IMG/VR virus record: IMGVR_UViG_3300025133_000083
Reading direction: 5' to 3' (one strand)
Length of the DNA: 64,000 bases
Source of the DNA: an uncultured virus (IMG/VR IMGVR_UViG_3300025133_000083)
Lineage: Duplodnaviria > Heunggongvirae > Uroviricota > Caudoviricetes
Shown here: positions 14,629-41,322 of the stretch, piece after piece
Layout: each line of letters opens with the position of its first letter
Position numbering within the stretch: the stretch's first letter is position 1
Program-made: the position numbers and the translations under genes
Notes under the pieces: model-generated
What the model saw: only the letters and a program-made list of their open reading frames with translations
What the model was told of the DNA's origin: nothing
Database searches by the model: none

Positions 14629-14636
14629 TAGTTTTG
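14629..14636 (+). promoter_or_regulatory. Bacteroidota-type -7 promoter element (TAGTTTTG)
   Basis: TAnnTTTG ahead of a long structured non-coding region. Confidence 0.55.
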
Positions 14637-14641: not shown

Positions 14642-15080
14642 CAGACCTGTCGAAGGGTTGGAAATTGAAAATATTAGAGACAACATAGTTGTTTCGGAAT
14701 TAAGACCCTCTTTGACCCTTCGACACTAAAGGGTCTTTTTTTTGGGATAAACTTTCGATGATCTGAATGAAAGAGTGTCAGACTACCAACAGCAACTTCC
14801 AAAAAACATATTTTCGGATAGAACAGGACGCTTTACGATCGCGGTAGCTGTCTATCTTAAAGGCTACTACGGGAACTTGATATAGCCAAAGGGGAGTGCA
14901 AGAGAACAACCCCATCAAGAGGTCGGCAGATTAGATCTTAAGTTGGTTCTTAGTCATTTGCAACTGTCTTGTAAATGATTGCCTCGATAGAAAACGGCTC
15001 CGCGAAGGAAGTTCGAACATATTAGGGTACTAATCGCACTACTAGATTTTGAAAAATCTCTAGGAAGGCGTGCTGTACCC
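14642..15080 (+). ncRNA. Putative structured ncRNA A
   Basis: About 590-nt ORF-free gap. Stems GATAG(A)ACAG/CTGTCTATC, GGCTA/TAGCC, AGTCATTTGCAA/TTGTAAATGATT, GGGTAC/GTACCC. Shares a motif with 41121-41143. Confidence 0.5.
14702..14743 (+). terminator. Terminator/attenuator hairpin
   Basis: AAGACCCT/AGGGTCTT stem plus T run. Loop is complementary to 14648-14659. Confidence 0.65.
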
Positions 15081-15206
15081 ACTCCTAAAAACTCTCCTTA
15101 AAGGAAGTCAACCCCAATAAGGGTTTAAACCTAAAAGGAGAAAATCTTAAAAAGAATAAAACTTAAAAAGATAAACCTAAAGAAGTAAGAATCTAATGAG
15201 TGTGTT

Positions 15207-15473
15207 ATGAGAAAGAGGAAAGGGAGGCTTAGGAATCCTAAGCTAAAGATTGATTGGTTAAGAGTGGAAGCAGCATTCTACGACCTTCCTGAAATAGGAC
15301 ACGACAAGAATGTTGGGATGATTTCCTTCAGAGGGTCTAAAAGGGAAAGGATGAATGTCTACACAACCACTGCAACAGTTGTAGTTCAACCTAGACATGG
15401 TTCTTGGAGCATAACTAAAGGGAACTCCTTCGAAAAGGTGGTCGCTATAATGAGTGGGTTATCTAGATATTAA
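15207..15473 (+). CDS. Hypothetical protein
   Basis: 88-aa ORF. Confidence 0.55.
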   Translation: MRKRKGRLRNPKLKIDWLRVEAAFYDLPEIGHDKNVGMISFRGSKRERMNVYTTTATVVVQPRHGSWSITKGNSFEKVVAIMSGLSRY

Positions 15474-15534
15474 TACTTGTTAGTTATAAAGTAAATATAT
15501 ACTTTAGCACTTCACTTAACAAGAAGCAGAAAAC

Positions 15535-15825
15535 ATGGCTAGAAGAATAACAAGAACGCAAGAAAGGCACGAAACACAGACTATCAACCGACCTAGATTT
15601 AGGAAAAGTGGAAAGAAAGAAAAAAGAGAGCTAACGGAGGTTGTAAGAATCAACGTTTCAGATGTTTTCATCTTAAAACCATTCCCTTTAAATAGAAGTA
15701 TTCCTACAAGCGGTTTCCTTCATAAGGGCTTGGATACTAAAGAAAAACAGAGAAAGGTTTTGCAGGAGAACTACGGTGACGTAAGATACTCAGGGAAGGA
15801 TAAGTGTTTCTATGTAAATAATTGA
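15535..15825 (+). CDS. Hypothetical basic protein
   Basis: 96-aa ORF with AGAAAAC-ATG leader. Confidence 0.6.
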   Translation: MARRITRTQERHETQTINRPRFRKSGKKEKRELTEVVRINVSDVFILKPFPLNRSIPTSGFLHKGLDTKEKQRKVLQENYGDVRYSGKDKCFYVNN

Positions 15826-15826
15826 G

Positions 15827-16123
15827 ATGAGAAAAGACTACGCAATAGGAATGGTTACTTTAATTATAGGATGGCTTCCTATGGTGTTCATTAACCTGAT
15901 CGGAAATTATTTTGGCGTAACAGCAACTATTATTGCCTTTGCGTTTGGAATCTTTTGTTGTCTTTTCGGGGCGCTTGTTGCGCTTTCATTGGGGATGAAT
16001 AATGAATTTTGGATGTCAATGGAAGATATTCGGAAGGAAAGACGTAAGATGATAGACGCAAGGATTGAGTATAACGCAGCTAAAAAGAAACTTGAACAGG
16101 CTGCATTGAAAGTAGAAAACTAA
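15827..16123 (+). CDS. Two-TM membrane protein with C-terminal coiled coil
   Basis: Two hydrophobic stretches followed by a charged helix. Confidence 0.6.
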   Translation: MRKDYAIGMVTLIIGWLPMVFINLIGNYFGVTATIIAFAFGIFCCLFGALVALSLGMNNEFWMSMEDIRKERRKMIDARIEYNAAKKKLEQAALKVEN

Positions 16124-16135
16124 AAACAAGAAAAT

Positions 16136-16291
16136 ATGAGTTTTGATACATGGTTTGATGAAATGAAAGCCGAATGCAGAGAGTTGGGCTATAAAGGAGT
16201 GATTGACAAGGAATCCTTCAGAATGGATTACGATGAAGGTAAAGATGAATTGGAAATAGCGAAGGAGTTTGTTGCTGAGATGCTAGATTAA
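16136..16291 (+). CDS. Small acidic protein (51 aa, not in ORF track)
   Basis: MSFDTWFDEMKAECRELGYKG...AEMLD, with A-rich leader. Confidence 0.6.
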   Translation: MSFDTWFDEMKAECRELGYKGVIDKESFRMDYDEGKDELEIAKEFVAEMLD

Positions 16292-16309
16292 TTCAACCCT
16301 CTAATTTCA

Positions 16310-16317
16310 TATCTTTG
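16310..16317 (+). promoter_or_regulatory. Bacteroidota-type -7 promoter element (TATCTTTG)
   Basis: TAnnTTTG upstream of 16337. Confidence 0.6.
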
Positions 16318-16336
16318 TCAGTAAACACATCGACTG

Positions 16337-17431: not shown

Positions 17432-17557
17432 ATCAAAACCACTATCTTCGTAACGCTATCTTGTTGTGAAGAAATTTAACAAAGCCTTTCATTCGATGTT
17501 GCCAAATGCTCAATCGAGCAAACAGGATAGCCTTCATCGTTTGGGAGGTTTTTTATT

Positions 17558-18163
17558 ATGAAGGTTAAAAAGAAATGTTCAGGGTGTTCTAAAAAGAAAC
17601 CACTAGATCGGTTTTATAACAACAAATCAAGGGTTGACGGGAAAAGCGGATTCTGCAAGAGGTGTTATGGAAAGTCAGCACAAAAGTATAACAGAACGAA
17701 AAAAGGTATTGTTAATAGAATTTACTCAAATCAAAAATCACACTCAATAGAAAGAAATCACTCCTTGCCCACGTATAGCAGGGCGCAACTAGGAAAATGG
17801 ATGCTTGACCAATACGTATTTCATAAATTGTACGACAATTGGGTGAAATCGGGCTACGATAAACATGAAACTCCATCAATAGATAGGATAGACGATTATA
17901 AGCCATACACTCTCGACAACATACAGTTAATGACTTGGAGAGAAAACGAGACAAAAGGAAGGTTAGATAGAATAAATGGAATTAACAATAAGTCTAATCA
18001 CACTGTTTCTCAATACACCTTGAACGGAGTGTTCATCCAAACATTCCACTCCATAGCGGAAGCAGCGAGAGTTACTAAAGGAAGCAAAGGGAATATATCA
18101 GAATGTTGTTCAGGGAACAGAAAATCAGCAGGTGGGTTTGCTTACCAAAAAACTAACCCCTAA
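17558..18163 (+). CDS. Free-standing HNH-type homing endonuclease with NUMOD1-like C-terminus
   Basis: CSGC/CKRC, SIDRID...YTLDNIQLMTWREN, VSQYTLNG...SIAEAAR...ISECC. Confidence 0.8.
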   Translation: MKVKKKCSGCSKKKPLDRFYNNKSRVDGKSGFCKRCYGKSAQKYNRTKKGIVNRIYSNQKSHSIERNHSLPTYSRAQLGKWMLDQYVFHKLYDNWVKSGYDKHETPSIDRIDDYKPYTLDNIQLMTWRENETKGRLDRINGINNKSNHTVSQYTLNGVFIQTFHSIAEAARVTKGSKGNISECCSGNRKSAGGFAYQKTNP

Positions 18164-18167
18164 TAAC

Positions 18168-18175
18168 TATCTTTG
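18168..18175 (+). promoter_or_regulatory. Bacteroidota-type -7 promoter element (TATCTTTG)
   Basis: TAnnTTTG between the HNH gene and 18192. Confidence 0.6.
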
Positions 18176-18191
18176 TTAAAATCACTAAAAT

Positions 18192-18848: not shown

Positions 18849-19207
18849 TGGATGGTGTCAATAGAGACATAGAATTTGAGAAGGATTTTTTCAGATACAG
18901 GCAATCCCCTAAAGGAGACAGCACTAGAATGGATGCTATTTGGAGTGTTTGGTCCATTCTAAGGATGAGAGACCTTAAGGCAATCCGAATAAGCCAATAC
19001 AAGACCATTACTGCATGTTTGAAACTTGCAGAGCTTCACTTCAGAATGGATGAAACTGAAATGCCTTACTTTGAGTATGTGAAGTGGTTTACGTACAATA
19101 GAATCCTAACGGGTCCAAATGGAACGGCAAGATGCCAAAGAAGCACCTTGTTCAAGCACCATCCTGAAGGAGCATTTAAAGAACACAAGAAAGAAACCTC
19201 CAAATGA
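18848..19207 (+). CDS. Hypothetical protein
   Basis: Translationally coupled to both neighbours. Confidence 0.55.
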   Translation: MDGVNRDIEFEKDFFRYRQSPKGDSTRMDAIWSVWSILRMRDLKAIRISQYKTITACLKLAELHFRMDETEMPYFEYVKWFTYNRILTGPNGTARCQRSTLFKHHPEGAFKEHKKETSK

Positions 19208-19917
19208 GATTTGAAGAAATTCCATACAATCAAGTAATCGCATCTGCTAAGATGTTTTTGAACTTGGAGAACACTACCGACCACGACCCATTCTTTCTAC
19301 TTATGGCAGACGAAGCCATGCGTAAGATAAACGACAGGTCAATGTTTGAGTTCAAGACACAGGACGTTACCGTAGATAGCGGAACGGCTCCATTACCATG
19401 TGGTTTTATGCAGATAATGGCAGCTTGGTTTTCCAATCAAGACGGAAGATGTACTTACGCCCCTTATGTAGAGAGAAGTATTGTGGATTTTTGCGGTTGC
19501 GACACTACCAATTGTGGTTCTTTAGGGAATTCATATCAGATAAACGGAAACTATATCGTGTTCCACAACCCCGATGCAATGTCTGCTGATGAAGTGACAT
19601 TGGCTTACTTGAGCATTCGATTAGATGAGAACAACCAACCCGTCATGTACGAAAGACACGAAAGGGCGGTAAGAGCGTATATTCTTTGGAGGGCTTTGTC
19701 TAAGTTCGCTAGAGCAGAGAAGCAAGCAGGGTTGAGGCAATCTATGATGAAGGACGCAATTATAAATCAAAGAGAATGGGGCTTGCAGAAAACAGATCTT
19801 CGCGCAACAGCAGTATTGGAGGGATGGAAAGAAGATAAGGTCAACATTTCGAGAACTTACAACGCTTGGATAGGTCAAGCAGAAAGGGGTCTTACAGGTA
19901 CGTACCGACAGAGATAA
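19204..19917 (+). CDS. Putative tail tubular/ring protein
   Basis: LPCGF...YQINGNYI...VTLAYLSI...AVRAYI pattern, directly before the muzzle-like gene. Confidence 0.6.
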   Translation: MRFEEIPYNQVIASAKMFLNLENTTDHDPFFLLMADEAMRKINDRSMFEFKTQDVTVDSGTAPLPCGFMQIMAAWFSNQDGRCTYAPYVERSIVDFCGCDTTNCGSLGNSYQINGNYIVFHNPDAMSADEVTLAYLSIRLDENNQPVMYERHERAVRAYILWRALSKFARAEKQAGLRQSMMKDAIINQREWGLQKTDLRATAVLEGWKEDKVNISRTYNAWIGQAERGLTGTYRQR

Positions 19918-19922
19918 CATAA

Positions 19923-22900
19923 ATGGCTGATAAGATAAATAAGCTCACTCCTATTGGGAATATGGATAAGGATTCCGATGTCAGGTATGTCGGGAAAAGG
20001 GAAGATAGACAAGGGGATACCATCAACAATAGGAACACCCAAATAGCAGGGGATGACGGAGCAAGTTCAGGGGATACAACACCTACACTTGGATGTGAGT
20101 TAGCATTTGACTTAGGGGAAGTAAATGCTCAGAATAAGAAATACACAATTACAGTAGACGGGGACGCAACCAAGTCACATGCAATTAGGTTTTTATCCAC
20201 TAAAAGGGATGTCAACATTACATCGGGAACAGGTTCAGCAGGGGAGATAGAGTTCAATGGAACAATAGCTTCTTTACAAGTAGCCTTTCTTGCTTCAACA
20301 CTACCTGCGGTATTCTTATTTACTGTAAATGGCAACGTAGCTACGTTTGAGCTTATCCCATATAACTACTATCAATGGTATTTACAGGGTTCGGGTGATG
20401 ATGATGTAGAAATAACCTGTACACAAGAAGCTATCCCAACAGACCTTGCGGGAGAGTTGAAGGACATAGGGGATAGAGATATATTGAGTGACCTGTTCAT
20501 TATGTCAACATCTCAAGACAACCTTCCTGAAGTGACCGATCTTCACGTTAATGGGATTGGTCCCTTGTCAGGAGGGCAGTTAGTGGGTCCACTTACATCG
20601 CTTTCATTTACCACAGAACATAATCTGATACAAGGTCAGTGGATACGGATAACCAACAGCAACGCAACATGGCTGAGTGGTGTATTCTTAGTTCAAAACG
20701 TAACATCTCTAACAGGAATAGAAATTGTTACAGATACCGCTTGGGGAGTTACACATCCAACATTTGTAATAGGTCAGGAATCAGTTACAATAAATCCTTA
20801 TGGGATAGGAGAAATAGGGGTTGCACAAAAAAATGACAACACAGATAGTTGGACGTACACAAGACTCCTTAGAAGTGTTGAATTAAACTTCGTAAGTAAG
20901 AAATACACCGATATAACAGGGGATAAGGACATCGACAAGGTTTCTATTTATTACGAGAACGACCACACCCCTTCAGGAGTGTTCTACTATTACGGAGAAT
21001 ACAGTAATGACGGAGCTTTAGCACACAACAATTCCGAGAACTTTTATTCTTACGGGAATATAGCCTACGCCATTAGCGCCACACAAAGGAAGCCGCCTAT
21101 AAGGATAGACTTTGATTCACAGGACCAATCGGGAGGAAACGTTCCTTCAGGAAATATCAGATATTTCGTTCTTTTGGAAGACCACTTCGGTAATTGGACA
21201 TTCCCTTCCGACCTATCGAATATTGTAATCACATATTCAGAAGAAAGTTCAGGGGAATCTCTTGGGGATGAAGCATCCGTACTTAATACAAATAAGGCGA
21301 ACAACCTCACAATTAGCGGTATAAACACGCAGGTCTACGAAAGACTAAGATTAGGGTATGTTTTAAGTATTGAGGGGGCTGTATCAGCGTATATAATGGA
21401 CGAGTCCGATATAACGGGTTCTAGCACTACCATTAAACACGATGGATTTTGCGGTGAAGAGCTTTACGACATAGGGCTTATAGGAGCCAACTTCTATTCA
21501 GGATATGACTTTGCTAAAAGCAATAACATAATTGACAAACGATTGGTCAGGTCAAATCTTAGAAAGAAAGAATTAAGCGACCTCTCAGCGTGGGCTGCAA
21601 CATTTAAGCACCGAATAAAGGAAGAGTTCATTCAATGCTCTTCTTATGCTAGTGACGCAAATGAATTCCAAGACCCCGAAAATGGCTTCTACAAGTCAGG
21701 ATACATGTTCAACGAGTCGTATCGTTATTCTGTTAGAGGTAGGTTTATAGACACGGGAGAATTTACTCCTTGGTTTTGGGTGGACGACATTAAGATAGAC
21801 CCATTTGCAACGAACACTTATAACCCTAACGACAATAGAAGAGACCAAACAGGTTCAGACATCGTTACAAACTTTGACCTTACAAAGAACTTAGGAGGTC
21901 CATTCCCGACAAGTAAATGGGTTAAAATCCCTTACGTTGAATTCTTTGATGTAGACACAAACCATCTTGTAGACGGTCAGCCTATATCAGCTATTATTGA
22001 CAGTATAGAATTCGGTAGGGCAGAGGTTGTTCCTGAAGTATTATGTACGGGATTAGCAACCATGTCGGTTGTTTTTCAAGGATTAAGAGGTATTTTCTAC
22101 AATAACTTAGGGGGAAATCAACCATTTACTTCTGATGATGGAGAAAGAGCAGCTTGCTTCCCATTCAATCAACTTGAAAATCAAGGGGATTATTTTATGG
22201 GATACCTTATTCAAGTTCCTTCCACTGATGATATTGCAGAAACTAGGTATGAATACCCATTCGTATATGGACCTCCTTACATGGGGTCGAACACCATAAA
22301 TGGAGCATACCCTGATGTGGGAGCAGACAATACAACTCCTATTTACGATTACCCGAACACAACGGATACTTTTTTCGGTGACCCCGTTCTTATTCAATCG
22401 GACCCCGCTGTTAATCCGTTTACCCCTTGGAAGTCGGATAGAACGATGCTTTCAATCTATTCACCCGACATCATATTCAGGAATAAAGAAGACATTTCAG
22501 GATACTCATTACTTGACTTCGGTGAAATGTTCTTAGGAACAGACGACCCTTTTTACAACAGAACAAATGCCAACAAAGGGGCTATGTTTTCTCAATACTC
22601 AAAGTACTTTCCTGAAAACTTAGGTCAAACATTTCAAATATATAACGTAGATGATTGGAAGGCTTTAGAGGCAGGTGAAAAAGACTTCATAACAACAGGG
22701 AAGTCATTCTCTAAGGGTTTCGGAATCGCACACAGAGGTCTACCTAGTCAAGATATGGTTGCTGTTGAGATGTCGCATAAGAATGTTGCAAGTCCTGTAG
22801 TACATATTGACAATCAAGGATTAGGGGTTACCCCACAGGGAAAGAACGCAGATTACGGAGTTCGATACATCCAAATGTACAAGCCTCTTACTAACAAATA

Positions 22901-24674: not shown

Positions 24675-24677
24675 AAG

Positions 24678-25292: not shown

Positions 25293-25310
25293 TTGGGTAA
25301 TCAATAAACA

Positions 25311-26819
25311 ATGGGAAACGGATCATATTTAGGGTTAGCACTCTCAGGAGAAACTAAAGCAGATCATTCAGGAGAGCAAAACCTTATTGATGCAGAAAAA
25401 GGCGCAGCACAACAACGACTTGCAGACCAAGCGAAGAAGGATAAGGCACGTAAAGACCTATTAAAAGAGGTCCACAAGAATACCGTTTGGTCTCAGAATA
25501 TGCTCCTGTCTAGAAATCAAGCTAGAGCAGAGGAGATTGTTGGGGAGAGCATGTTGGATATTGTCAACGGCATTAATGACGGAAGCATGGCAATGGGAGA
25601 GGTGTATGAATCGATGCGTGGAGTAGAGTCTAAAATGAATGCTTTATCTAGGGCTGATAAGCAGAATTTCGATGCCTTTCAGAAATACGCAGAGAACCCA
25701 TCCATATACGGGGGTGTAAAAACCATAAACGTTAAAGGGAAAGACTACAAGACCCCAATAGAGCTTTACAACGATAGGTCGCTTACAACACAGGAGATAG
25801 CGGAAGCAATGCGTACAACAGAATTCGCATCCATGCCTAATGAGGTTCTTGGGGAGGACGTAATGAACATAGACTTCAGAGAAAGAATGACAGCGGAAAA
25901 CGCTGCTGACGTAGCTCTAAAAGAGAAAGCGGAATGGTTTAATGTTTACAACGAAGGGAAGAAAATAACAAACCCAAGCGGGAAGCAAACATACGTTCCA
26001 ACATTCCATACTCTTAGCGATGAAGGAAAGGCTGCTACAATGCAAGCCGTTAAGAAAAGCACTATGGTAATGGACCATTATACAGATCAAATACTTGACG
26101 AGCCAAGCAATGTATTGAAGGTCGGTAGCGATGAGATGTTCGATGAAGTTCAAAAAAGAATAGATACTGACCTGACAACGTATTTAGATAACGCAAAGAA
26201 GACGGGTAGGGTGTTGGACTTCAGCCACGACAAAGCCAAAGCAACGGGTGTTGATGTATTGTTCAACGTATCTAAAGAGCCTCAAGTAACAAGAGGGCAT
26301 AGGGGAACACCTTCGGGAGCTACATCTTATGAGTATATCCCTACAAAAGCGAAAATGAAGATAACGCCACTACCTGTAGGTACTGTTAGCGTTAATAGTG
26401 AAGGGTATTTCACAGAAGGAGGTCCTGACGATGAATTGTTTGACGCAAAAGGAGCTTCAAAAAAGGTTGCACAAGCAAAAGCAATGCCTTGGAGGTTGTC
26501 TTTCTCCGACAAGGATATATGGTTCGATTACGCAGGAGATGAAGAAGAATACCACGCAGTTCCTTTAAGCGCGAGTTCATATAGGGATTGGGTAAACCGA
26601 ACAGAGGAAACTCCTGAAGAGGTGATGAGAAAGATAAAAAAGCTTACCAAGAACGATGCTTCTATTATGAAGCAGACAAGGGGCTTCTATAAGGAGCTTT
26701 GGGGTGATGATGAAGGAAGTAAAAACCCAACAGAAGCAGAGTTTAATGCTGCTTGGGCAAAATTGAAAAGTGGAGAATCTACAATAGGACCAGACGGTAA
26801 AACTTATACTAAAAAGTAA
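25311..26819 (+). CDS. Putative internal virion/ejection protein
   Basis: 502 aa, between the small ejection gene and the giant gene. Ends in KSGESTIGPDGKTYTKK. Confidence 0.5.
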   Translation: MGNGSYLGLALSGETKADHSGEQNLIDAEKGAAQQRLADQAKKDKARKDLLKEVHKNTVWSQNMLLSRNQARAEEIVGESMLDIVNGINDGSMAMGEVYESMRGVESKMNALSRADKQNFDAFQKYAENPSIYGGVKTINVKGKDYKTPIELYNDRSLTTQEIAEAMRTTEFASMPNEVLGEDVMNIDFRERMTAENAADVALKEKAEWFNVYNEGKKITNPSGKQTYVPTFHTLSDEGKAATMQAVKKSTMVMDHYTDQILDEPSNVLKVGSDEMFDEVQKRIDTDLTTYLDNAKKTGRVLDFSHDKAKATGVDVLFNVSKEPQVTRGHRGTPSGATSYEYIPTKAKMKITPLPVGTVSVNSEGYFTEGGPDDELFDAKGASKKVAQAKAMPWRLSFSDKDIWFDYAGDEEEYHAVPLSASSYRDWVNRTEETPEEVMRKIKKLTKNDASIMKQTRGFYKELWGDDEGSKNPTEAEFNAAWAKLKSGESTIGPDGKTYTKK

Positions 26820-32800: not shown

Positions 32801-35800
32801 TACATAAAGGACAATCAAATTGAGGTTGTCGATGTTACGAGGGGGAAGCCTGAAGAGAAGGAAAGGGCTACGAGAGGTGCGATTTCAGACATTGAGTTAG
32901 TAGATGACACATGGTACGTGAATATAGGTGAAACTGAAATTACAGTACGAAAGTTTGACGCTGAAACAGAAAACGAAGCTATTGACCATGCTCTTGACGA
33001 ATACAATGATGAAGAATACGGACCTACTGTAGATAATCTTGCTAATACCAAATACTCCCAATACGTACTCGAAGGCGGAGAGAATTACAGAGAGGTTCTG
33101 TTGACGTTGCCTGATGTAGGGTTAAAAGCCATAGGGGAATACAACTCAATATACGGTGATGAACAGATATTTTTAAAAGAACTGAATATTCCTACTGAAG
33201 CAGATAGAGCTAAAGCAAAAGAATTCGAGGACCGATTAAAAGAAGCAAAAGAGAAGCTTCCTCAAGACGTAGCTTTCCAAGCAGGATATGCCTACAGCGC
33301 AAAAACTCAAGACGACTATATCTCAACTCATTGGGACGGACAGAAAAACATCCTTGCCCATCTAAGGATGAATGAAAGAACACTTCCTAACGGGGAGAGG
33401 GTTCTGTTTTTGGAAGAAATGCAAAGCGATTGGGCGCAAGGAGGAAAGAAGGACGGGTTTAAAAGAGATCTTAACCAAGAAGAGAAGGACAGAATAGAAG
33501 AGATTGAAGTCGAAAAAGGGGAAATCCTTTCTAATATCCCTAGTCTACAATATCTAAAAGAAATACTAGGGTCTTTGGACGAAATGTCTGAATACAACGA
33601 GTACACAAAGAAGTCTCCTGCGCATAAATTGAGGTTCATGTATTCTGTAATAGAGCCTAACATGGAGATGCTGCAAAGAAGGCTCGAAGGGAAATTCATG
33701 CCTGAAGATGAAGCCCGTGAAAGATACATGGACAACGCAAGAGGTCGTGTTGATTATTGGTTTAAAAATGCAAGATCAGTTCCTGAAGTAACCGACAAAC
33801 AGCTTCTTGAATTATTTGAATTATACAAGAAGGACGCAACCAAACAAGGAACCACTAAAGTATTTGAAAGAGGGCTTGGTAGAGAGGATATTACAATAAA
33901 TGACTTGGTTGAATACGATAAAATTCACGAAGAATCGTTGACTATTGTGTTCAATGCTGACAAAGCCAATTCTGTTCCCGACATGCCTTACAAGAAGACC
34001 GACCAGTGGGTAGGTATGGCTATGCGAAGGGTTATGAAGATGGCTGCGGAACAGGGAATGGATAGAATTGCTTGGGTTACAGGTGAACAGGCTGCGGATA
34101 GGTTTGACCTGAGCAAGCAGATACCTTACTTGCAATATGATGTGGTCGAGGATTCGGACGGGAATATTGATAGCTACGTTTTAAGAGTTCCAAATGAAGG
34201 CGGTGCTATTCAGCAGGAATTAGACCTGACTGAAAGTGAACTTGAATCGCATGTAGGAAAGGAGGTTGCTCAAAAAATAATTAACCAAGAAGGCAACATT
34301 AATAAAGATGTAAAATCCGTAGATGGAGTGTTGTACGGAGGTAAAAAACTTGTAGGCAATGACCTAAAAGTAGGCGGTGAAGGAATGAAAGCCTTTTACA
34401 ACAGTATTCTCCCTAAAGTAGCGAAGAAAGAGGCGCAACGTTTCGATAAGAAGGCTAGGATTGAGGTTGTTGACATGCTCAATACAGATGATATGCCAAT
34501 CGACACATACGCAGTACCGTTCGATAAGGCTGTTCATATTTTACAGGAAATTCCAAATAAGGAGAGTCTTAAAGATGGAGATTGGGTAATTAGCCATAAA
34601 GGTGAATATGTAAGTACAATTCCCAAAAACAAGGCAAAAACTGAAGACGATGCACTTGCCCAATGGGTTAGCACCAATATGGGGACTAGTGAAATAACAA
34701 AACAACCTTCCAAACAACTCTCTATCCCGATAACCCCCGAAATGAGAATGAACCTTAACGGGGCTATTCCACTTTTCCAAGGCGCACAGGGAGCAATGCT
34801 TGCTGAAGACGGTAACTACGTTATATACGCTCTTACCGACCCTAACGTAAGCACACCTTTACATGAGCTAAGTCATGTTTTCGAGAAGTACCTATCCGAA
34901 GATGAAGTGAAGAAGGTTCTAGCTTGGACAGGACACCGTAAATGGGATACAAAGACATCCGAGCGTTTTGCTAGAGGGTTCGAGAGGTATTTAAAGAACG
35001 GAAAGGCTCCAACACCGCAACTTCAGAAGATATTCGACAAGTTCAGGTCTTGGCTTACCGACATCTACGAAACGGTTAAGAATTCCGAAGTGAACATTCC
35101 TTTAAATGACGACATGATAGAGATATACTCTAAAATGTTGGGAGCCGAAGAGGTTCAGTCATTCGTAGAGGAAATGGAACAGAGAGTGGCTGATGAGAAA
35201 GCGGCTGACGAGAAGTTTGCAGAGGAAGAAGCGGCTAAAATGGACGCTAGAGCCGAAGAAGAAGCGGAAGAACTCAAAAGCCTTAAGTCTTCTGATGAAG
35301 AGATGACGAAAGAGGATTGGATTCGAGAGAATATAAAACTCACAAAAGGAGATGTAAAGAAATACGCTGACCTGAAGGCTTGGGAAGAAAGCAAGCAATA
35401 TTACAGAGGTATTGTTGATTGGAGCAGCGATAAAGCACAGGTTGACACAGCGGTAGAGGTTCTTTCAGGAGAATCAGGACAGGACATTTCAATACAAGAC
35501 GTTATTGATTGGGCGAACGGTGTAGCAGCAGAAAGGTCCACAACGGGTTCAACCGACAAGAAGATCCCTGCAATAAAGAAAAGGAAGCAGCCAACTCAAA
35601 AGAAAGCCATTACCAACAAAACATCTGTTGGAGACATGCTTAGGAAGCTTTCTGAAAATGTAGGGGGCATTAAACTAGATACAGACCCAAGAAAGGCAAG
35701 AGGATTCATCATTCCTCCGCAGTTATGGAACTTAGCAATAGCGGCAGCCGAAAAAACACTCGACCTTACCGCTACGGGCGCTGACAAAACAACAGAATTT

Positions 35801-38800
35801 GTAGATTTCATTGTTGACTTTATAAAGAAGTCTAAGGAATATAGGAGGGCAAAGCATAAAAAGGCTATAAGCGTGAGGAGTAGTGTTCTCGACAAGATGG
35901 GCATTACCCAAGATGAGTTTGATAAAATGCGTAAGCAGGCAACGGAGATATACAAGAAGCAAGCTAAGAAAGAGGCTGATAAAGACCTTAAAACAAAGCT
36001 GAAAGACGCTAAGAAGGAAACAGCACGACTTCTCAAGAAGTATGACGCAGAGGAGCAGGAAACCCGTAGAAACTATTCCCCTAGAATGGTTGATGCAGGA
36101 GGGAAATCTGTTGAGAAGACAGTAGCAGGAAGACGAGCATACAGAGGGAACATACGAGATGAAGTAAAGGACTTCCTAGAAGGAAACGGTCTAGATAGGA
36201 TAGTTGTATCCCAAGAGGAACGGTCTGTAGCAGCAACAGCCTTTATAGACCAATTCGGAGAGAATAATGCAATAGAGGCGGTAAGAGAATACGATGTAAG
36301 GGGCGCTCAAGCAGCTTCCATACTCGCTCAAACCATTAAGAACATCGACCAACGCATGTCTGAGCTTACAGCAACGGATGTTGATGAATTGGACAGACTA
36401 TCCAAGAAACAGGCTGATGTTATCGGGATAATGGATAGAGAAGCCTTTACGGGTGGTAACTTCAACTCGCAGTTAGCTTACGAATATGCTGATGCTGATT
36501 TAGGCTTCAACGTAGATAAGATCATAAGCAAGTGGGAAGAGGACTTCAGCGAAGAGATACCTAAAGATGTTGAGGATAAGTTCCGAAAGTGGGATGAAGA
36601 ACGACAAGAGCTTAAAGTTCAATTAACGGACGCTATAAAACGTGCTGAAGCAGCAGAAGCGGATGCGGCTATTAAGAACATACGGGAATCTGTCGGAAGA
36701 GCCAAGGAAGGAGGTAAAACCTACAAGGCGAAAGCGAAAGACCTTGCAGCCCAATTCAGAAAGCTTAAAACAAAGCCGATTAAATTCAGGGATGCAGACG
36801 GTAACGAGATAACAATCACCGAGAATGCTATTATTTCTTGGAACGATATTATTGAAATCGGAGCGAAAGCAATTGAATTGACAGGAGATATTGCTGACGG
36901 TATAAAAGCTATGAAAGATGCTCTTGCCGATGCTGATTGGTTTACCAAACTAGCAAAGAGAGACCAAGACGCAGTTGTTCAACAACTAGAGGACCATTTC
37001 AGTGCTGATACCGCTGAAGAGGTAGTAGAAGAGCAGGGAATTAAAATCCCAAAGGCTGTTATCCGAGAGTTGGTAGAAGGCGGAATAGACAACATCGAAG
37101 ACCTAGTTGAAGCGGTTAAGGAGTTCCTTATAGAGGACTATCCTGACGTTACAGACAGGGAGATAAGAGATGCTATTACAGGTTACGGGAAGACCGTAAA
37201 CATGGATAAGACAGAGGTTGGGAAGGAAATAAGACGACTGAAGGAAATAGGTCGTATCATATCCCAATTAGAAGATGTTGCCAACAAGCAAAGACCCCTA
37301 AGAAGTGGAGCGCAAAGAAAACCGTTTACGGCAGAGCAAAAAGCGGAGATAAGAAGACTGAAGCGACAGCTTAGAGAGGCGATGAAAGACCTTCCTATCG
37401 ATTCCGAAACAGAAGCCCGTCAATTAGCTACTGCATTGGATGTAGCGAAGAACAGGTTACGTAATCAAATTGAAGACCTAGACAGGGAAATAAAGGAGAA
37501 GAAGGTAGCAACTAGAAAACCTAGAGACCTGAAGGGAGATGCTAAATTAAAGCAGCTAACAGAGAGGAGGGACGCTTTAAAAGCCATACATGACGAAACC
37601 TTTAAGGATGACGAAAAACTCACACAGCAGAAGATAAACGCTGCTGTAAGCGCCACTAAGAAGAGTATTGACGAGTACGAGCGAAGAATAAAGGAAGGAG
37701 ACCTATATCCTGAAAAAGCACCTCCACTACCTGAAACCCCTGAATTGAAGGCTTTAAGAGCTAAGAAGGATAAGCTGAAGGAGACGTTGGAGGCAATGAG
37801 AAGGGCTGCTAATCCTAAGAGAACAGAAGCTCAAAAAGCTCTAGATAGGGTCAATAGAAGCATTGAAAAAGTTGAAGAGCGCATTGCTAAGAAGGAGTTG
37901 ACAAAAAGAAAGAAAACCCCGATAGTAAGTGCTGAAATATCGGCAGCTAAGAAGGTATTGGCAGAGCAGCGAAAGCTTTTACGCCAAATGCAAGAGGACG
38001 CAGGGATAATAGAAGACCGCAGACTTGAATTGGCTAAGAACCGTGTTAATTCACGAATAAAGGATTTCGAAAGAAGGCTTTTAACAGGTGATTTCTCCAA
38101 GAGAGAAGCTAAACCTCTTATTCAGGATACCGAATTAGCGGCAATACAAGGAGATCTTCTCCGAATAAAGGAGGAGTACGAAAAGGCTTTCTACAAAAGG
38201 AAATTGCAGAACAGAACAGCAGGAGAAATCCGTTGGGACAGGTTTTGGGATGGATGGGCTTTACTAAGGGTTATTAAGGCTACGGCTGAAGCTTCTTTCA
38301 TACTTATACAAGGTGGGACACAAACGATTGCACATCCTAAGAACGCTTTGAAAGCCCTTAAGAATTCTTGGGATTTCTTTAAGAGTGAAAGACATTCTGA
38401 GCAATGGATAAGACACATCAAGTCGCAAGAGTTCTATCCTGTTATGAAGCGATCCAAATTAGCCCTTACGGAGCCACACGCAGAGCTTAAGGCAAGAGAG
38501 GAACTTTTCTACAGCGAATGGTTTACTATGGTGTGGAATATCTTAGGAAAACCTTTGAATATTCTTGGAGAAAAAGCTTACGACAAGTTTGTAGCGGCAA
38601 ACCCTGTTCAAGCTATTGAACGAGCAGCGGTAGGGTACTTGGACACGCATAGAGCGTTGAGATTCCTGCAAGTAATGGAGAAACTTGAATCCGAAGGGAA
38701 ACCATTTCACGGCAACGAGCAGGAGTATAAAGACGTAGCTGATGTGATAAACACCTTAACAGGTAGAGCTTCACTAGGCAAGGCTGAACTGTTTTCTGAC

Positions 38801-40078
38801 AACCTGACAAAGGTGTTCTTTTCACCTAGAAATTGGGCTTCTCAATTCAAAACAGCCACTCCTTACGCATTCATTCACTTCGGTAAAATGAGAGCAGGGG
38901 CAGAGCCTTGGAGGACTTCTACAGCGCAGAAAATGGTATTAGGGGACCTAAGTAAGCGTGTAGCTTTTACTATGTCAATGCTTACGATGGCTGCTGTTTA
39001 CTTGAACAACGATGATGACGATGAAACAGGTGTAGAATTTGACCCTAGAAGTTCAGATTTCCTTAAAATCAGACTTGGAAGAATAAGAATTGATCCTTGG
39101 GGAGGAATGATACAGCAGGTCATATTAACAGCAAGGATGCTTATGGATGTTCTGCATGATGTAGACACAAAGGCAGGTTTAAAAGGAAGACTCAGTAAAG
39201 GAGGGATGAAAAAAGATGATGGCTCAATACTTCCTTTGGGAATGGCTTATAAAACAAGAAATAAATGGGAAGCAATGGAATCGATGGCAATAAACAAGCT
39301 ATCGCCAACCGCACACCTACTTTATGAATACCTTACTAAAAGTGAAGATGCTGAAGGTAATTGGGAAACCCCATACGGACAGGAGTATGAAATTCTAGAA
39401 AGCGTTGAACCATATCCTATATATTGGGGATTATGGGGGGAAGAGGAGTTAAATGTAATTAATGAGTTAAGGGAGGGCGACCCATCCGCACTTGATGGAA
39501 TGCTTTTATTCTACGCTTTCTTAGGGGGTGGTGTTAGTGTTTACGAGAAAAAGGACAGTAAATCCAAGAAGGGAGAAGCTGAAACAGCTTTGGACGAAGA
39601 AGAAACACGAATTTCAGAAGAAAGGAAAGCTATTAAGGATGAAGCTCTATCCAAGATAACCAATAGTGGTCCAATAAGAACCTCACAAGTAAGGGAGGAT
39701 GTAGCCGAAAAGCTAGAAAGAGACCTAAAGAAGGTCAACGGGAAGTCGGTTGGTTGGAAGTCCTTACGAAGGAACCTTGCAGAGAAACACAATGTATCTG
39801 TTTTTAGAAACGATTCTACGGTAGCGCCTCTATTGAATTCTTTCCTTACGGAGCCGCAAGAAGGTTCTGTTGGGTCCATAAGAGATATAAATACATTAGC
39901 CGCCAAGTATATTGACGACTTCCTTGATAAGGAAGATTATAAGGGTCCTTGGAAAATGGATGTAAAACATAGATCCGCCCTAAAGAAGCTCCTTAAGCAT
40001 AAGGAAGAAGCAGAAAAACAAGAGTTCATAAGGGCTGTCAATAAGTACATACGAACACATCCAAAAGCCAAGAAATGA
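26819..40078 (+). CDS. Giant polyvalent (probably virion-ejected) protein with zincin metallopeptidase domain
   Basis: 4419 aa. STPLHELSH...ERFARGFERYL metallopeptidase, long coiled coils, G/A-rich hydrophobic segments, C-terminal DPRSSDFLKIRLG...IDPWGG. Confidence 0.7.
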   Translation: MQDKQTWKPPTDAVVEEDAQWTPPTDALTKEDPEKKKTSPSSSQDGSDVLQASQESSSKEPQPEVQPEETQIEPEVADPDFIPTPDQPLEGLGGEARQPISVLQDPLEASRKVPEENPFKAFERIQGEREGLDKSHLSDAPAIDFGGKWAKAKEQKEEEISGKMSSSQAQLEKNLPKVNERLNEMFKEDFVIGDALSREFITKDTDGMDVPDAESLSEYAKEKAEEMGLPEDGYAWKHIWNKAKDHIAYKIIQPRVEKEAEAIYKEKHGTSIKDAGSSDEIAKYADIQGIQDKAILEFKSFQDEQLEQADQYANELVLNKYGAEPDEVVAQMNERNEQNMAAIEAQYGRFIQGEQFTGTEEQFAEYQEVNKQARQAYEQEFSEVLATLSSAEAEANRRYKRTVLAKGEEIERGMKSIMEDKRKLIDPLIQERIGDAYNQAYKKVAGDDENAKNLVERSFGENLTSTMTSAFSGSIKAMGTTFGNQRMQEWGDYMEKHYHIGDVNMEEWSDWLDLSKAARSTGNLIGTMGTSMIPAIAAGAVTGGLGASPFVSGMVASIAGFGGESSDLAGRMYDDTFRETGDAAKAAERSKMVFDSQMILAPTYMLEMLPVFGDLTTKFTKGLFSKVLLGAGIEYTTETFLQEFPQNSFEKAIREDEDLAKVFKHMTWASLEETAKNTVGVVFMGGAGQANQHFSEKLDDKAAEKKLKANAKTMAAKVALGRLSDNDAQQAILKMVAQKGVRFADAVISSTWQSGEITYEQAGPLLANVKTAESVIGKVREYNLSDVHSYVLSSMFLKHEKAEQEAEREKSGVIQKLKQKKAASIQADIDAMFSKGEAHYATLTYANGDFAVLTVDEARKKMKEEGFAKTFEEGDLKMEAFGPEAEQFAEELNAVLDVKEEAPKAKEKAKPTPEQAAERQETLKKREEAGIEPEVMKDAPKQIMNTVLDVAEGKPVSKQQAKSASDWLYKEFKKVKAMKGDENAPISQDKVQTYLDNLSSDIEALENYEQPKAEVKKEEKVELVKKKDENLTKEPVIKEKAEKVKQPSKSEKKTESVVEEKTKEEVAEKPKPTHTVKGEKVDAYDLGIVPKSSQSAADMGIKPVFSKVTKKEGLEVIDEKIDDQSKYISGLEKSLQKEKDEDAKYGSEGGGVKAFTSQLKEANGQLKELEGKKKEFLSRFKAEKPVAKPTPKKAEKKPEGAEKFKNEVFAEAKKQGIDPKDLNVEDIELTHNATIQNAEEYIAQYKKGEHGYQKKAEEKPTLQKGEVVKTVGLPKIVDGKLNPFLGIEGVVTDVSSEEVTIDTKKYGRISYYPKNLESVSKKPEAKKAPAKKEPKKKEAKKDPQIEAIAKDVSMKASDIRGLYQVARDIFGQTQDKALASAIVMDAMIGEMASREGISKEEMYDKIEFRKGDKDTEKALREGNEAIFQGKKEVEESKNLIAFHNLNALNVHNIDNIGGIPMPSLAVTKKDIPFESYGEISLIADKSMVDPKTGGRTFASDIYSPRYPSITYDANYKQLQKRFGQYESLLPENISRGTIHSLVSEIEERGLEEAHRNSLIQAAYLQETQGKLPRIKNVPKPKVSKALLEHYKKQKEEKGWYDSLDAQKDEEFQELWLDEQRKYYESKLGKEEGLDVFNSLYSDGIKHHAYHGIINKLSQAANPNIRQDELAFKRALEDKTTGNPLRERKFKKWIDNQFKDIDINEKLFTGYDRDGSRKYLNHTVENVMRILKKGDLRGGEAWNYGAGSLRSAVVPKFKSVQDIKDSENKLITDEEFEKIKDEANEALIDLAHKISKTNSRPNSNPFMETDRVTSIIEEAAKTGRYDFSEYGYNMTPELYQEVRDFLEKLRNMPTTYFESKPKRVVDLSEFKAALVPKNVDKKAEQILKDKGVKIVKYDQRKETGRKEALDKYIEKTKDILFQDDTTPEIWKSTAQEGLSKVQQKNATPEQWVKMIADKGGKGTLQELEWIGLSDFLNDWKKSNKAKSVPKEVVEQYIKDNQIEVVDVTRGKPEEKERATRGAISDIELVDDTWYVNIGETEITVRKFDAETENEAIDHALDEYNDEEYGPTVDNLANTKYSQYVLEGGENYREVLLTLPDVGLKAIGEYNSIYGDEQIFLKELNIPTEADRAKAKEFEDRLKEAKEKLPQDVAFQAGYAYSAKTQDDYISTHWDGQKNILAHLRMNERTLPNGERVLFLEEMQSDWAQGGKKDGFKRDLNQEEKDRIEEIEVEKGEILSNIPSLQYLKEILGSLDEMSEYNEYTKKSPAHKLRFMYSVIEPNMEMLQRRLEGKFMPEDEARERYMDNARGRVDYWFKNARSVPEVTDKQLLELFELYKKDATKQGTTKVFERGLGREDITINDLVEYDKIHEESLTIVFNADKANSVPDMPYKKTDQWVGMAMRRVMKMAAEQGMDRIAWVTGEQAADRFDLSKQIPYLQYDVVEDSDGNIDSYVLRVPNEGGAIQQELDLTESELESHVGKEVAQKIINQEGNINKDVKSVDGVLYGGKKLVGNDLKVGGEGMKAFYNSILPKVAKKEAQRFDKKARIEVVDMLNTDDMPIDTYAVPFDKAVHILQEIPNKESLKDGDWVISHKGEYVSTIPKNKAKTEDDALAQWVSTNMGTSEITKQPSKQLSIPITPEMRMNLNGAIPLFQGAQGAMLAEDGNYVIYALTDPNVSTPLHELSHVFEKYLSEDEVKKVLAWTGHRKWDTKTSERFARGFERYLKNGKAPTPQLQKIFDKFRSWLTDIYETVKNSEVNIPLNDDMIEIYSKMLGAEEVQSFVEEMEQRVADEKAADEKFAEEEAAKMDARAEEEAEELKSLKSSDEEMTKEDWIRENIKLTKGDVKKYADLKAWEESKQYYRGIVDWSSDKAQVDTAVEVLSGESGQDISIQDVIDWANGVAAERSTTGSTDKKIPAIKKRKQPTQKKAITNKTSVGDMLRKLSENVGGIKLDTDPRKARGFIIPPQLWNLAIAAAEKTLDLTATGADKTTEFVDFIVDFIKKSKEYRRAKHKKAISVRSSVLDKMGITQDEFDKMRKQATEIYKKQAKKEADKDLKTKLKDAKKETARLLKKYDAEEQETRRNYSPRMVDAGGKSVEKTVAGRRAYRGNIRDEVKDFLEGNGLDRIVVSQEERSVAATAFIDQFGENNAIEAVREYDVRGAQAASILAQTIKNIDQRMSELTATDVDELDRLSKKQADVIGIMDREAFTGGNFNSQLAYEYADADLGFNVDKIISKWEEDFSEEIPKDVEDKFRKWDEERQELKVQLTDAIKRAEAAEADAAIKNIRESVGRAKEGGKTYKAKAKDLAAQFRKLKTKPIKFRDADGNEITITENAIISWNDIIEIGAKAIELTGDIADGIKAMKDALADADWFTKLAKRDQDAVVQQLEDHFSADTAEEVVEEQGIKIPKAVIRELVEGGIDNIEDLVEAVKEFLIEDYPDVTDREIRDAITGYGKTVNMDKTEVGKEIRRLKEIGRIISQLEDVANKQRPLRSGAQRKPFTAEQKAEIRRLKRQLREAMKDLPIDSETEARQLATALDVAKNRLRNQIEDLDREIKEKKVATRKPRDLKGDAKLKQLTERRDALKAIHDETFKDDEKLTQQKINAAVSATKKSIDEYERRIKEGDLYPEKAPPLPETPELKALRAKKDKLKETLEAMRRAANPKRTEAQKALDRVNRSIEKVEERIAKKELTKRKKTPIVSAEISAAKKVLAEQRKLLRQMQEDAGIIEDRRLELAKNRVNSRIKDFERRLLTGDFSKREAKPLIQDTELAAIQGDLLRIKEEYEKAFYKRKLQNRTAGEIRWDRFWDGWALLRVIKATAEASFILIQGGTQTIAHPKNALKALKNSWDFFKSERHSEQWIRHIKSQEFYPVMKRSKLALTEPHAELKAREELFYSEWFTMVWNILGKPLNILGEKAYDKFVAANPVQAIERAAVGYLDTHRALRFLQVMEKLESEGKPFHGNEQEYKDVADVINTLTGRASLGKAELFSDNLTKVFFSPRNWASQFKTATPYAFIHFGKMRAGAEPWRTSTAQKMVLGDLSKRVAFTMSMLTMAAVYLNNDDDDETGVEFDPRSSDFLKIRLGRIRIDPWGGMIQQVILTARMLMDVLHDVDTKAGLKGRLSKGGMKKDDGSILPLGMAYKTRNKWEAMESMAINKLSPTAHLLYEYLTKSEDAEGNWETPYGQEYEILESVEPYPIYWGLWGEEELNVINELREGDPSALDGMLLFYAFLGGGVSVYEKKDSKSKKGEAETALDEEETRISEERKAIKDEALSKITNSGPIRTSQVREDVAEKLERDLKKVNGKSVGWKSLRRNLAEKHNVSVFRNDSTVAPLLNSFLTEPQEGSVGSIRDINTLAAKYIDDFLDKEDYKGPWKMDVKHRSALKKLLKHKEEAEKQEFIRAVNKYIRTHPKAKK

Positions 40079-40854
40079 TAACTCTAGCAACAGTAGGAGC
40101 ATTTTTATCCAAGTTCGGAATTCCGTTACTTGAGTTCTTGAAAAAGAATTGGAAACAATTATTCGTAGGGGGGCTTATTCTTTGGGTGGTCATCTGCTAC
40201 ATGTCGCATTGTAGAGGATACTCCCCCTTTGGAGGAGGGGGTTCAGATACTCTTTCGGTTGAAATAGATACGGTATGGATTCAGCCCGACACCAATCTTA
40301 TTATCCATCTGAAGGGGTTCGACACCATTCCTGAAGTTGTTTATGTAGACGAAACTCCTAATTGGGGAATTCCTGCTACTAATTTCGAAGACGCTAAGAA
40401 TTGTAAGGACAGTCTTATTCTACTTCGGGAAACCCTGTTCGCAGCCAATTACATCCTAGACCAATGCGACAGCCTATACAGATGGCATACCGCTAGAAGG
40501 GTGTATAATGACACTGTTTCCAACGACAGTATTAAGCTGTATGCGGAAACGATAGTAAAGGGGTTCAGAATAGGAGAACCGACAATCGGATACACTTGGC
40601 TCCGCCCTCAACCTGTAATAACCAAAACAATTACCCTTATTGATACAGTGGGTCCATTCAGGAAGATATATGTAGGAGCAGGGCTTGGTCCGAGATTGCC
40701 TTGGGAGAGCGATAGGCTTGACGCTATTGTAGGTTCTGTCGGTGTAGGTTATACCGATAGGAAGAACAATAGTTATGGGCTTAGAGGCGATTTCTCGCAG
40801 AAAGATTATTCTGTATTGTTCGAGTACAAAAAGAGTTTCAATATAGGGCGGTAA
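40075..40854 (+). CDS. Membrane-anchored protein, spanin-like candidate
   Basis: N-terminal TM helix, DT[VIL] repeats, C-terminal amphipathic beta strands. Confidence 0.45.
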   Translation: MITLATVGAFLSKFGIPLLEFLKKNWKQLFVGGLILWVVICYMSHCRGYSPFGGGGSDTLSVEIDTVWIQPDTNLIIHLKGFDTIPEVVYVDETPNWGIPATNFEDAKNCKDSLILLRETLFAANYILDQCDSLYRWHTARRVYNDTVSNDSIKLYAETIVKGFRIGEPTIGYTWLRPQPVITKTITLIDTVGPFRKIYVGAGLGPRLPWESDRLDAIVGSVGVGYTDRKNNSYGLRGDFSQKDYSVLFEYKKSFNIGR

Positions 40855-40910
40855 CTACTCGTTTCTTATCGTTATTATGCTTTATTTGCTTTTGTTTAAA
40901 GTGAAACACA

Positions 40911-40918
40911 TATATTTG
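40911..40918 (+). promoter_or_regulatory. Bacteroidota-type -7 promoter element (TATATTTG)
   Basis: TAnnTTTG ahead of the second long non-coding region. Confidence 0.6.
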
Positions 40919-40923
40919 TACTT

Positions 40924-41302
40924 CCCTTACGGGTTTTTCTTTCAGGAAAATTAGCCTTAGCAGAAATGTTGGGGCTTTTTTTATAGATTTGTTGGACATA
41001 CATTTCGGTGTTACCGACAAGTTGACCGAAAGTTCCTGAAAGAAACGAAAAACCTCAACTTACGTACCGAGTAAGAAAACCCTTAATCCGAGCAATGACG
41101 CCCTACTGTCAACTCGGTCTATAGAACAGACGCTATATCGCGGAGTAAGTAAAAGGGTTAGAGTCGTAAAAGAGTAATGTGAGCGAAGATATAGATGTAA
41201 GAGGAGGCTCACTCGTATGACGACCATTATTGCTTTTCAGCCATTCATCCCCGTATGTTTGTATAGAGTAGGTGTGGACTTTTCTCTAAAAAAAGCTGAA
41301 AA
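40924..41302 (+). ncRNA. Putative structured ncRNA B
   Basis: About 510-nt gap with no credible ORF. Stems TTTCTTTCAGGAA/TTCCTGAAAGAAA, AACCCTT/AAGGGTT, CCGAG/CTCGG, GTGAGC/GCTCAC, TTTTCAGC/GCTGAAAA. Confidence 0.5.
40953..40982 (+). terminator. Terminator-like hairpin
   Basis: AGCCTTAGCA-GAAA-TGTTGGGGCT followed by a T run. Confidence 0.7.
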
Positions 41303-41322
41303 TATACTACTCGATTTTTGTA

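Follow-up and report, generated by a model that had tools for sequence, protein, structure and literature searches.

Whether the two long gene-free gaps in a tightly packed phage genome hold members of one family of large structured RNAs is the question raised by IMGVR_UViG_3300025133_000083, an uncultured virus of the Caudoviricetes in the IMG/VR database. The whole stretch of 64,000 nucleotides that was analysed, hereafter called the window, has 41% G+C and contains no N, and 94% of it is coding in a greedy map of open reading frames (ORFs). Its two largest ORF-free gaps, referred to here as region A and region B, are 14618-15206 (589 nt) and 40855-41363 (509 nt), and the next largest measure 360, 225, 213 and 205 nt. 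An initial annotation, made from the letters alone, had described both gaps as ORF-free in an otherwise tightly packed genome, each opening with a TAnnTTTG element and an early terminator-like hairpin that are followed by about 300 nt of nested stems around a common core, and had proposed that they encode paralogous RNAs or RNAs carrying the same protein-binding module. The description of the openings was confirmed: TAnnTTTG lies at 14629-14636 in A and at 40911-40918 in B, and the hairpin runs into T8 in A (14714-14735) and into a T-run in B (40953-40976). The proposed kinship was not borne out. The reading that we consider probable, with room left for doubt, is that A and B are unrelated control regions and that the + strand of A encodes an RNA that is structured, conserved and made up of several domains.

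The window belongs to a divergent marine crAss-like phage, the host of which is probably a member of the Bacteroidota. In this phylum, TAnnTTTG is the consensus -7 box of promoters recognized by the primary sigma factor and is accompanied by a TTTG at -33.

Conservation and folding of region A

A metagenome scan with the helicase of the window as query yielded 19 loci. Two of these, L084 and L085, represent one relative with a helicase of 74% identity and with gene synteny to the window over window positions 5.7 kb to 20.9 kb. Positions 14731-15183 of the window were aligned to this relative by blastn with 75.1% DNA identity over 462 nt; coding blocks in the same synteny have 64-78% DNA identity, and no intergenic DNA other than A was aligned. 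The small ORFs on the left flank of A share 47-50% amino-acid identity with the relative, and the three ORFs on the right flank (15207-16123) have no counterpart in it. The alignment of A carries no sign of codon periodicity, as its 78 mismatches are distributed 27/27/24 over the codon positions and 10 columns contain indels. ORFs of 88 and 62 aa are present on the opposite strand of the A region in the relative, and both are interrupted by stops in the window. In all six frames of gaps A and B, 3-16 stops of at least two kinds were found, so that no single stop reassignment opens either gap.

Based on an RNAalifold analysis of the window, L084 and L085, 143 base pairs were predicted in A. Seventeen pairs are changed on both sides with pairing kept, compared with 7.9 +/- 2.2 in column shuffles, none of which reached 17 in 500 trials. 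When the partners were slid by 1-3 columns, the number of both-side changes fell to 1-5 and the share of paired cells from 94.6% to 42-47%. Folding of single sequences gave a z-score of -3.35 for the window (0 of 100 shuffles fold as well) and -2.94 for L084. The compensatory changes are spread over six helices:

14648-63 / 14710-25: 6 pairs changed on both sides
14762-68 / 14775-82: 2 pairs changed on both sides
14816-31 / 14841-56: 3 pairs changed on both sides
14876-81 / 14914-19: 1 pair changed on both sides
14920-24 / 14934-38: 1 pair changed on both sides
15091-96 / 15119-26: 2 pairs changed on both sides

The predicted fold favours the + strand: its consensus energy is -128.7, whereas the reverse complement gives -115.6, and three G-U pairs in an 11-bp invariant hairpin become mismatches if read on the other strand. 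The features expected of a structured functional RNA, namely conservation beyond the neighbouring sequence, non-coding character and compensatory pairs, are thus all present in A as it is known from two lineages, one being the window with its near-identical strains and the other being L084/L085. The suggestion that A is a large structured phage RNA is upheld to this extent. It was also right to set A apart from transfer RNA (tRNA), transfer-messenger RNA (tmRNA), RNase P and introns: ARAGORN detected no tRNA or tmRNA genes in the window, and Rfam 15, which covers RNase P, tmRNA, 6S, group I/II introns, GOLLD, ROOL, HEARO and OLE, gave no match at gathering score over the whole window, so that no Rfam family removes the novelty of A. 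The matches in permissive Rfam scans, 5 in one and 7 in the other, fell well short of threshold; GcvB, the best of them, had 18.4 bits against a required 42. A is accordingly a candidate for a conserved, folded non-coding RNA (ncRNA) of about 450-550 bases that falls in no catalogued family. Its anatomy, as predicted, is as follows:

14629..14636, + strand: -7 box TAGTTTTG, an orphan of Bacteroidota type, 571 nt from the next gene
14643..14743, + strand: 5' element, one long hairpin with main helix 14648-14663 / 14710-14725, its base abutting U8 (14736-14743)
14739..14805, + strand: domain 1, in which the U-run/GGG pairs with CCAAAAAA and encloses the hairpin 14762-14768 / 14775-14782
14816..14856, + strand: motif hairpin, with the core motif as 5' strand and an apical CGC/GCG mini-stem
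14867..14990, + strand: multi-branch core, with an invariant closing helix and a GGGG/CCCC hairpin with an invariant loop
14920-14938 and 14951-14981, + strand: hairpins of the multi-branch core, the latter being the invariant 11-bp hairpin with three G-U pairs
14994..15183, + strand: 3' part, with hairpins 14994-15014, 15025-15080 (GGGUAC...GUACCC) and 15091-15140 and an A-rich tail

The promoter box is embedded in GTAGTTTTG, which is invariant in L084/L085 amid variable flanks, and in L084 the TAG of this sequence is the stop codon of the upstream ORF. A TTTG upstream of the -7 box is present in B and is not clear in A or L084. The 5' element folds far better than shuffled sequences (z -3.73, 0 of 200), and the terminator scan recognized 14714-14735, followed by T8, as a terminator-like alternative within it. 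Between the two lineages the sequence of this hairpin is almost wholly different and its pairing is kept; in the 16-bp helix, 6 pairs are changed on both sides and 4 on one side relative to L084. The terminator stem GACCCTT/AAGGGTC becomes GACCCAA/TTGGGTC in L084/L085 with the U8 retained. A G+C-rich hairpin followed by a U-run, the hallmark of an intrinsic (rho-independent) terminator, is found in both A and B.

Downstream of the U-run the pattern of conservation differs from domain to domain. In domain 1, the single-stranded stretches are strongly conserved and the enclosed hairpin has two compensatory pairs (TCTGA/TCAGA to TGTGC/GCACA) with all cells paired. The motif hairpin comprises 14 pairs, of which 3 are changed on both sides, and again all cells are paired. 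The core at 14867-14990 has 90% mean column identity to L084 and invariant loops, and two of its helices carry compensatory pairs. Conservation ends near 15183, where the blastn alignment stops, and the helix 15025-15080, with 7 broken pairs, is uncertain in detail. No + strand terminator was found by the terminator scan after 14743 in A, nor was any -7 box found between A and the ORF at 15207; the RNA of A is therefore physically the leader of the downstream ORFs.

Within the relative itself, L084 and L085 differ at 16 of 8716 positions. Six of the 16 differences make up three GA/AG (CT/TC) dinucleotide swaps in both arms of the 5' hairpin, at 4605-4675, the orthologue of about 14650-14725 in the window. 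Each version keeps one or two mismatches, and one arm of one contig is the reverse complement of the opposite arm of the other contig. These swaps may reflect gene conversion between hairpin arms or a hypervariable site.

The motif common to the two gaps and the nature of region B

The case for a common origin of A and B was built on a core motif, and the motif is present in both as had been noted: ATAGAACAG(G)ACGCT, preceded by TCGG, occurs at 14818-14832 and at 41121-41134. The paralogy or common-module hypothesis places the centre of the family at TCGG..ATAGAACAG(G)ACGCT..ATCGCGG. It draws support from the fact that the motif occurs exactly twice in 64 kb, on the same strand and in the two largest gaps, from the opening layout of box, hairpin and U-run that both gaps have, and from an alignment score in the upper 4-6% of controls. 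Against this, the best local alignment of A and B is the 27-nt motif stretch, whose score of 27 compares with 21.6 +/- 2.6 for dinucleotide shuffles and is reached by 21 of 500 of them; likewise, when real 509-nt segments were drawn at random from the window, 21 of 377 equalled or surpassed B in their match to A. When A was replaced by the A region of L084, the score against B was equalled by 113 of 500 shuffles, the terminator tail being the best match. The motif common to A and B is a coincidence at chance level.

Evolution of the motif in A leads to the same result. In the orthologue in L084/L085 it reads ATGGATAAGGGCGCG, and the changes are compensated on the 3' strand of the hairpin, which means that selection acts on the pairing and not on the letters that A has in common with B. 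In B, there is no matching 3' strand for the hairpin, and the motif sits in a portion that folds no better than shuffled sequences (z 0.03). Two covariance models were built from the two lineages, R1 for the motif hairpin and R2 for the core of A. R1 recovers A at 94.9 bits and matches only that site in the window; R2 scores 171.6 bits in the core of A and 168 bits in L084/L085, with no other match. Even with the filters switched off and E values up to 10 admitted, neither model matched anything in 40855-41363. IMG/VR scans with the motif returned 1 and 70 loci, and all 71 match the bare 15-21-mer alone, as expected of chance matches. Scans with the invariant blocks of A twice gave 0 matches, and a further 0 in genome_contigs; four loci that did match invariant blocks proved to be chance 16-mers with R2 scores of 8.9 bits or less. 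The family hypothesis is thus largely refuted and is left with a slight chance of being right. In the preferred reading, A and B are two unrelated intergenic control regions, and the succession of a host-type promoter box, a hairpin and a U-run at the start of each accounts for their whole resemblance.

Region B consists of a structured beginning and a longer remainder:

40911..40918, + strand: -7 box TATATTTG, with TTTG at 40891-40894, 445 nt from the next gene
40931..41055, + strand: 5' element, a 125-nt three-way junction whose long closing stem encloses the terminator hairpin 40953-40976 with its U-run
41063..41330, + strand: spacer with TCGG at 41114-41117, the motif at 41121-41134 and -7 boxes at 41254-41261 and 41323-41330

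The first box lies 35 nt upstream of the terminator stem. In the repeat scan, the closing stem emerged as an inverted repeat that is perfect over 13 nt (40936-40948 / 41033-41045) and can be lengthened to about 22 bp; besides the terminator hairpin, it encloses the hairpin 40986-41023. The fold of 40924-41062 has -45.9 kcal/mol and z -4.82 on the + strand (0 of 200 shuffles), compared with -32.7 kcal/mol and z -2.78 on the - strand. The remaining 268 nt (41063-41330) have a z-score of 0.03, with 104 of 200 shuffles folding as well, and 40985-41363 has z -0.86 (20 of 100 shuffles). The roughly 300 nt of nested stems ascribed to both gaps hence hold for A, where the z-score of -3.35 and the covariation support them, and fail in B beyond its first 139 nt. 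The last box, 41323-41330, is 34 nt upstream of the gene at 41364. Taken together, B reads as an operon boundary, in which a putative structured element of 125 nt with a terminator would end the cargo-gene block and a spacer of about 270 nt would lead to the promoter boxes of the next genes.

A 44-aa ORF inside B (41217..41351, + strand), with GAGGAGG 9 nt before its ATG, was considered and is probably no gene, because the phage shows no Shine-Dalgarno usage and the GAGGAGG site is also the 3' arm of a hairpin. The proteins flanking B (40075-40854 and 41364-42203) have no relative in IMG/VR, and the protein 42206-43123 gave one unrelated 39-residue match in genome_contigs. Contigs from the sequencing runs X3, X5, X6 and X7 were compared with 39800-42400. 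Those of X3 and X5 do not differ from the window anywhere in B; in X6, a diverged contig aligns to 40525-40736 with 36 differences and is then unlike the window, so that no diverged strain covers B.

Competing explanations and known systems

In the model that we prefer, transcription would start at about 14643 from the conserved TAGTTTTG box, and many transcripts would end at the U8 as a hairpin RNA of 100 nt. The read-through RNA would carry the conserved fold of about 400 nt, from 14739 to about 15140, with at least 12 helices. This RNA stands at the head of a long + strand block that reaches the tail ring, muzzle and giant cargo genes. Within this explanation it is quite possible, though short of probable, that the read-through product is a stable protein-binding ncRNA acting in trans, by analogy with the long non-coding RNAs (lncRNAs) of phage phi14:2 described below. 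A role in trans is suggested because the fold is far more complex than a leader needs, because the RNA has been retained across an exchange of the ORFs that follow it, and because the phi14:2 precedent exists.

Several points weigh against the preferred model. The covariation in A comes from one pairwise comparison between two lineages, and the structure was predicted from the same sequences that were used in the test, which inflates the paired-cell figure. Moreover, 24 of the 143 pairs cannot form in one lineage, most of them belonging to the 5' loop region or the 15025-15140 helices, and the fold of the - strand of A is likewise more stable than that of shuffles (z -3.18). The U8 hairpin lies upstream of the conserved body and no separate promoter was found for the body, so that its expression would depend on the postulated read-through. 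For the separation of A and B, the nominal p of their alignment is about 0.04-0.06, and a short common protein-binding site is conceivable; the junction in B is putative, being predicted from the thermodynamics of a single sequence.

The main rival, in our judgement unlikely, is that A is a cis-acting 5' leader of the + strand tail and cargo operon, in which the U8 hairpin stops most transcripts and a phage factor or the leader RNA itself permits read-through, B being a second checkpoint. The order of signals speaks for it: the terminator follows the promoter box by 78 nt in A and by 35 nt in B, the reverse of the order at 9312-9358, an ordinary operon boundary where a conserved terminator hairpin with compensatory changes precedes a -7 box both in the window and in L084 (at about 9790-9850, reverse strand). 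A third apparent case of a box before a terminator, at 9222/9312, was rejected, its box sitting in coding sequence and being absent from L084. A also heads a + strand gene block running to 45431, and as no + strand terminator closes A and no -7 box precedes the ORFs 15207-16123, these must be transcribed through A. Nevertheless, the conserved, complex part of A comes after the terminator, whereas a put-like or riboswitch-like element must act before it, and the segment before the terminator is a plain hairpin of variable sequence; a conserved sensing fold upstream of the terminator and competing with it, as in a riboswitch or attenuator, was not found in A. Furthermore, the two lineages have different ORFs immediately behind an RNA that both retain, the later genes are served by internal -7 boxes of their own at 16310 and 18168, and no antiterminator gene was identified.

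Two further alternatives concern DNA and protein. That A works at the level of DNA, as a replication origin, a packaging site or protein-binding DNA, has an even slighter chance than the family hypothesis. A does lie near the helicase of the replication module, its sequence is highly conserved without being coding, and both of its strands fold better than shuffles. But no iterons or repeat arrays were detected, only short two-copy matches, and GC skew follows the gene strand without an independent turning point; A thus lacks the signature of a replication origin, in which a turning point of the skew would be expected together with iterons or with an AT-rich element for unwinding. Besides, the compensatory changes in six helices and the G-U pairs that favour one strand fit RNA rather than duplex DNA. 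Finally, it is hardly credible that the gaps hold small, recoded or degraded genes. The two opposite-strand ORFs of the relative and the 44-aa ORF of B with its upstream GAGGAGG could be read in that way, but the former are closed in the window, every frame contains at least two kinds of stop, the alignment of A combines single-nucleotide indels with a lack of codon periodicity, and the phage shows no use of Shine-Dalgarno sites. A is best regarded as a credible candidate for a new large phage ncRNA or leader.

Read-through systems are familiar from the short PR'-tR' transcript of phage lambda with its Q antitermination and from the put RNA of HK022. Like the lambda PR'-tR'/Q system, A has a promoter box and then a hairpin and terminator within about 100 nt, upstream of a very long operon. 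In contrast to lambda Q and HK022 put, neither a Q-like gene nor a qut site nor a double hairpin of the put type was identified for A, and its conserved complex RNA lies downstream of the terminator. Large structured ncRNAs of bacteria and phages include GOLLD, ROOL, HEARO, OLE and raiA, and some of these families are carried by phages. A resembles them in its length of several hundred nt, its many helices, its invariant loops and its multi-branch core. It differs in scoring below threshold for every model, with none of these families in the permissive lists, and in having no neighbouring tRNA genes and an occurrence in two lineages only.

The closest precedent for A is found in the early lncRNAs of phi14:2, a crAss-like phage of Cellulophaga. 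A preprint reports that two long intergenic regions of this phage already exceed most genes in transcription at the earliest time point, and that the intergenic transcripts, at the g004-g005 and g005-g006 junctions, persist through infection with a function that "remain[s] to be determined" (bioRxiv 10.1101/2020.03.07.982082). Among the literature on ncRNAs and non-coding regions of crAss-like phages, as far as the sources were accessible, only this preprint was found relevant. In the phi14:2 record (NC_021806), the gene-free stretches are 1279-1983 and 2905-4601. As with A, the phage is a marine crAss-like phage with a host in the Bacteroidota and long gene-free stretches, each headed by a TAnnTTTG box just after the upstream stop codon, although the count of this box in the phi14:2 locus is not above chance (12 found against 15.4 expected). 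Unlike A, the stretches head early genes, whereas A precedes tail and cargo genes; no early terminator was found in them; and positions 1-9000 of NC_021806 have no homology to A or B, giving short blastn matches and a best R2 score of 6.9 bits (E 0.4).

A comparable situation exists among distant relatives of the window phage, whose helicases are about 33% identical. They have an ORF-free gap of their own, 580 nt long, just upstream of the helicase operon:

L001 2966-3549 and L002 2162-2741, also in L088 and L091-L095: 580-nt gap of the distant relatives

Six versions of this gap are about 93% identical. One of the strands is favoured both in folding energy (-126 vs -108 kcal/mol) and in broken pairs (4 vs 14), one hairpin has three compensatory pairs, and a TATATTTG box stands at the 3' end. 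No sequence relation of this L001/L002-type gap to A or B was detected, and R2 gave no match in it. Long lineage-specific non-coding elements thus seem to recur in this phage group. The helicase ORF of L001 (4016-6616; also in L088) encodes 866 aa, compared with 422-476 aa elsewhere, and its match to the helicase of the window falls into two parts, 4001-4918 and 6047-6355. Between these parts lies about 1.1 kb of additional in-frame sequence, which may be an intein or an inserted domain.

Genome context and significance

The window is recognizable as crAss-like by the following genes, to which a portal gene must be added:

12236-13504, - strand: SF2 helicase
19204-19917: SU10-adaptor/ring-like protein
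19923-24674: ORF with the Crassvirus muzzle domain
26819-40078: 4419-aa ORF with a PBECR5 nuclease domain

No named phage proved to be closely related: the INPHARED collection gave neither a DNA match to 14000-16200 nor a protein match to the portal of the window. The sequencing runs that contain the phage are labelled marine metagenome, and none of those listed is an RNA run. TAnnTTTG has 49 matches in the window, of which 15 fall inside the 5.8% of the sequence that is non-coding, most of these 15 being 13-56 nt upstream of a gene start. A Shine-Dalgarno-like 4-mer stands upstream of 10 of 73 genes against a background of 18%, that is, without enrichment. The enrichment of TAnnTTTG before genes and the lack of Shine-Dalgarno enrichment both fit a Bacteroidota host.

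Some further observations concern single loci. The PBECR5 domain (Barnase/EndoU/RelE-like) occupies residues 1425-1625 of the 4419-aa ORF, which has no other Pfam match at E up to 1e-4 and is presumably the giant virion cargo/RNAP-type protein of crAss-like phages. Free-standing homing-endonuclease-like genes were detected at 17558-18163 (NUMOD1) and 50099-50767 (GIY-YIG with NUMOD3); the former looks like a recent insertion because it has no counterpart in the syntenic L084. A 159-aa PAS-fold protein (PF08447, E 2e-15), unusual for a phage, is encoded at 46117-46596 on the - strand. The third largest gap (54018-54377, 360 nt) lies among small + strand ORFs; within it, 54118-54135 is a terminator-like hairpin, and a -7 box at 54327 precedes the gene at 54378 by 44 nt.

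Large, highly structured ncRNAs are seldom encountered, and finding one has tended to open up new biology. The crAss-like phages rank among the most abundant phages known, and the only transcriptome available for them, that of phi14:2, had already revealed very abundant lncRNAs that lack an explanation. A bolder proposal, possible though doubtful, is that A founds a new class of multi-domain trans-acting RNA of about 450 nt in uncultured marine crAss-like phages, protein-sequestering or even catalytic and produced in the course of infection, and that crAss-like phages of the Bacteroidota routinely devote 0.5-2 kb to lineage-specific large ncRNAs. If so, A, the phi14:2 lncRNAs and the 580-nt gap family of the distant relatives would together support such routine use, and the 125-nt junction of B could be a second, independent example. 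The present results remove the false lead of an A/B family and provide in A a defined sequence, 14640-15190, for structure probing and wider homology searches. A second, unrelated RNA backed by covariation, in another crAss-like lineage and at another genome position, suggests that RNAs of this kind may be a general but fast-evolving part of the infection programme.

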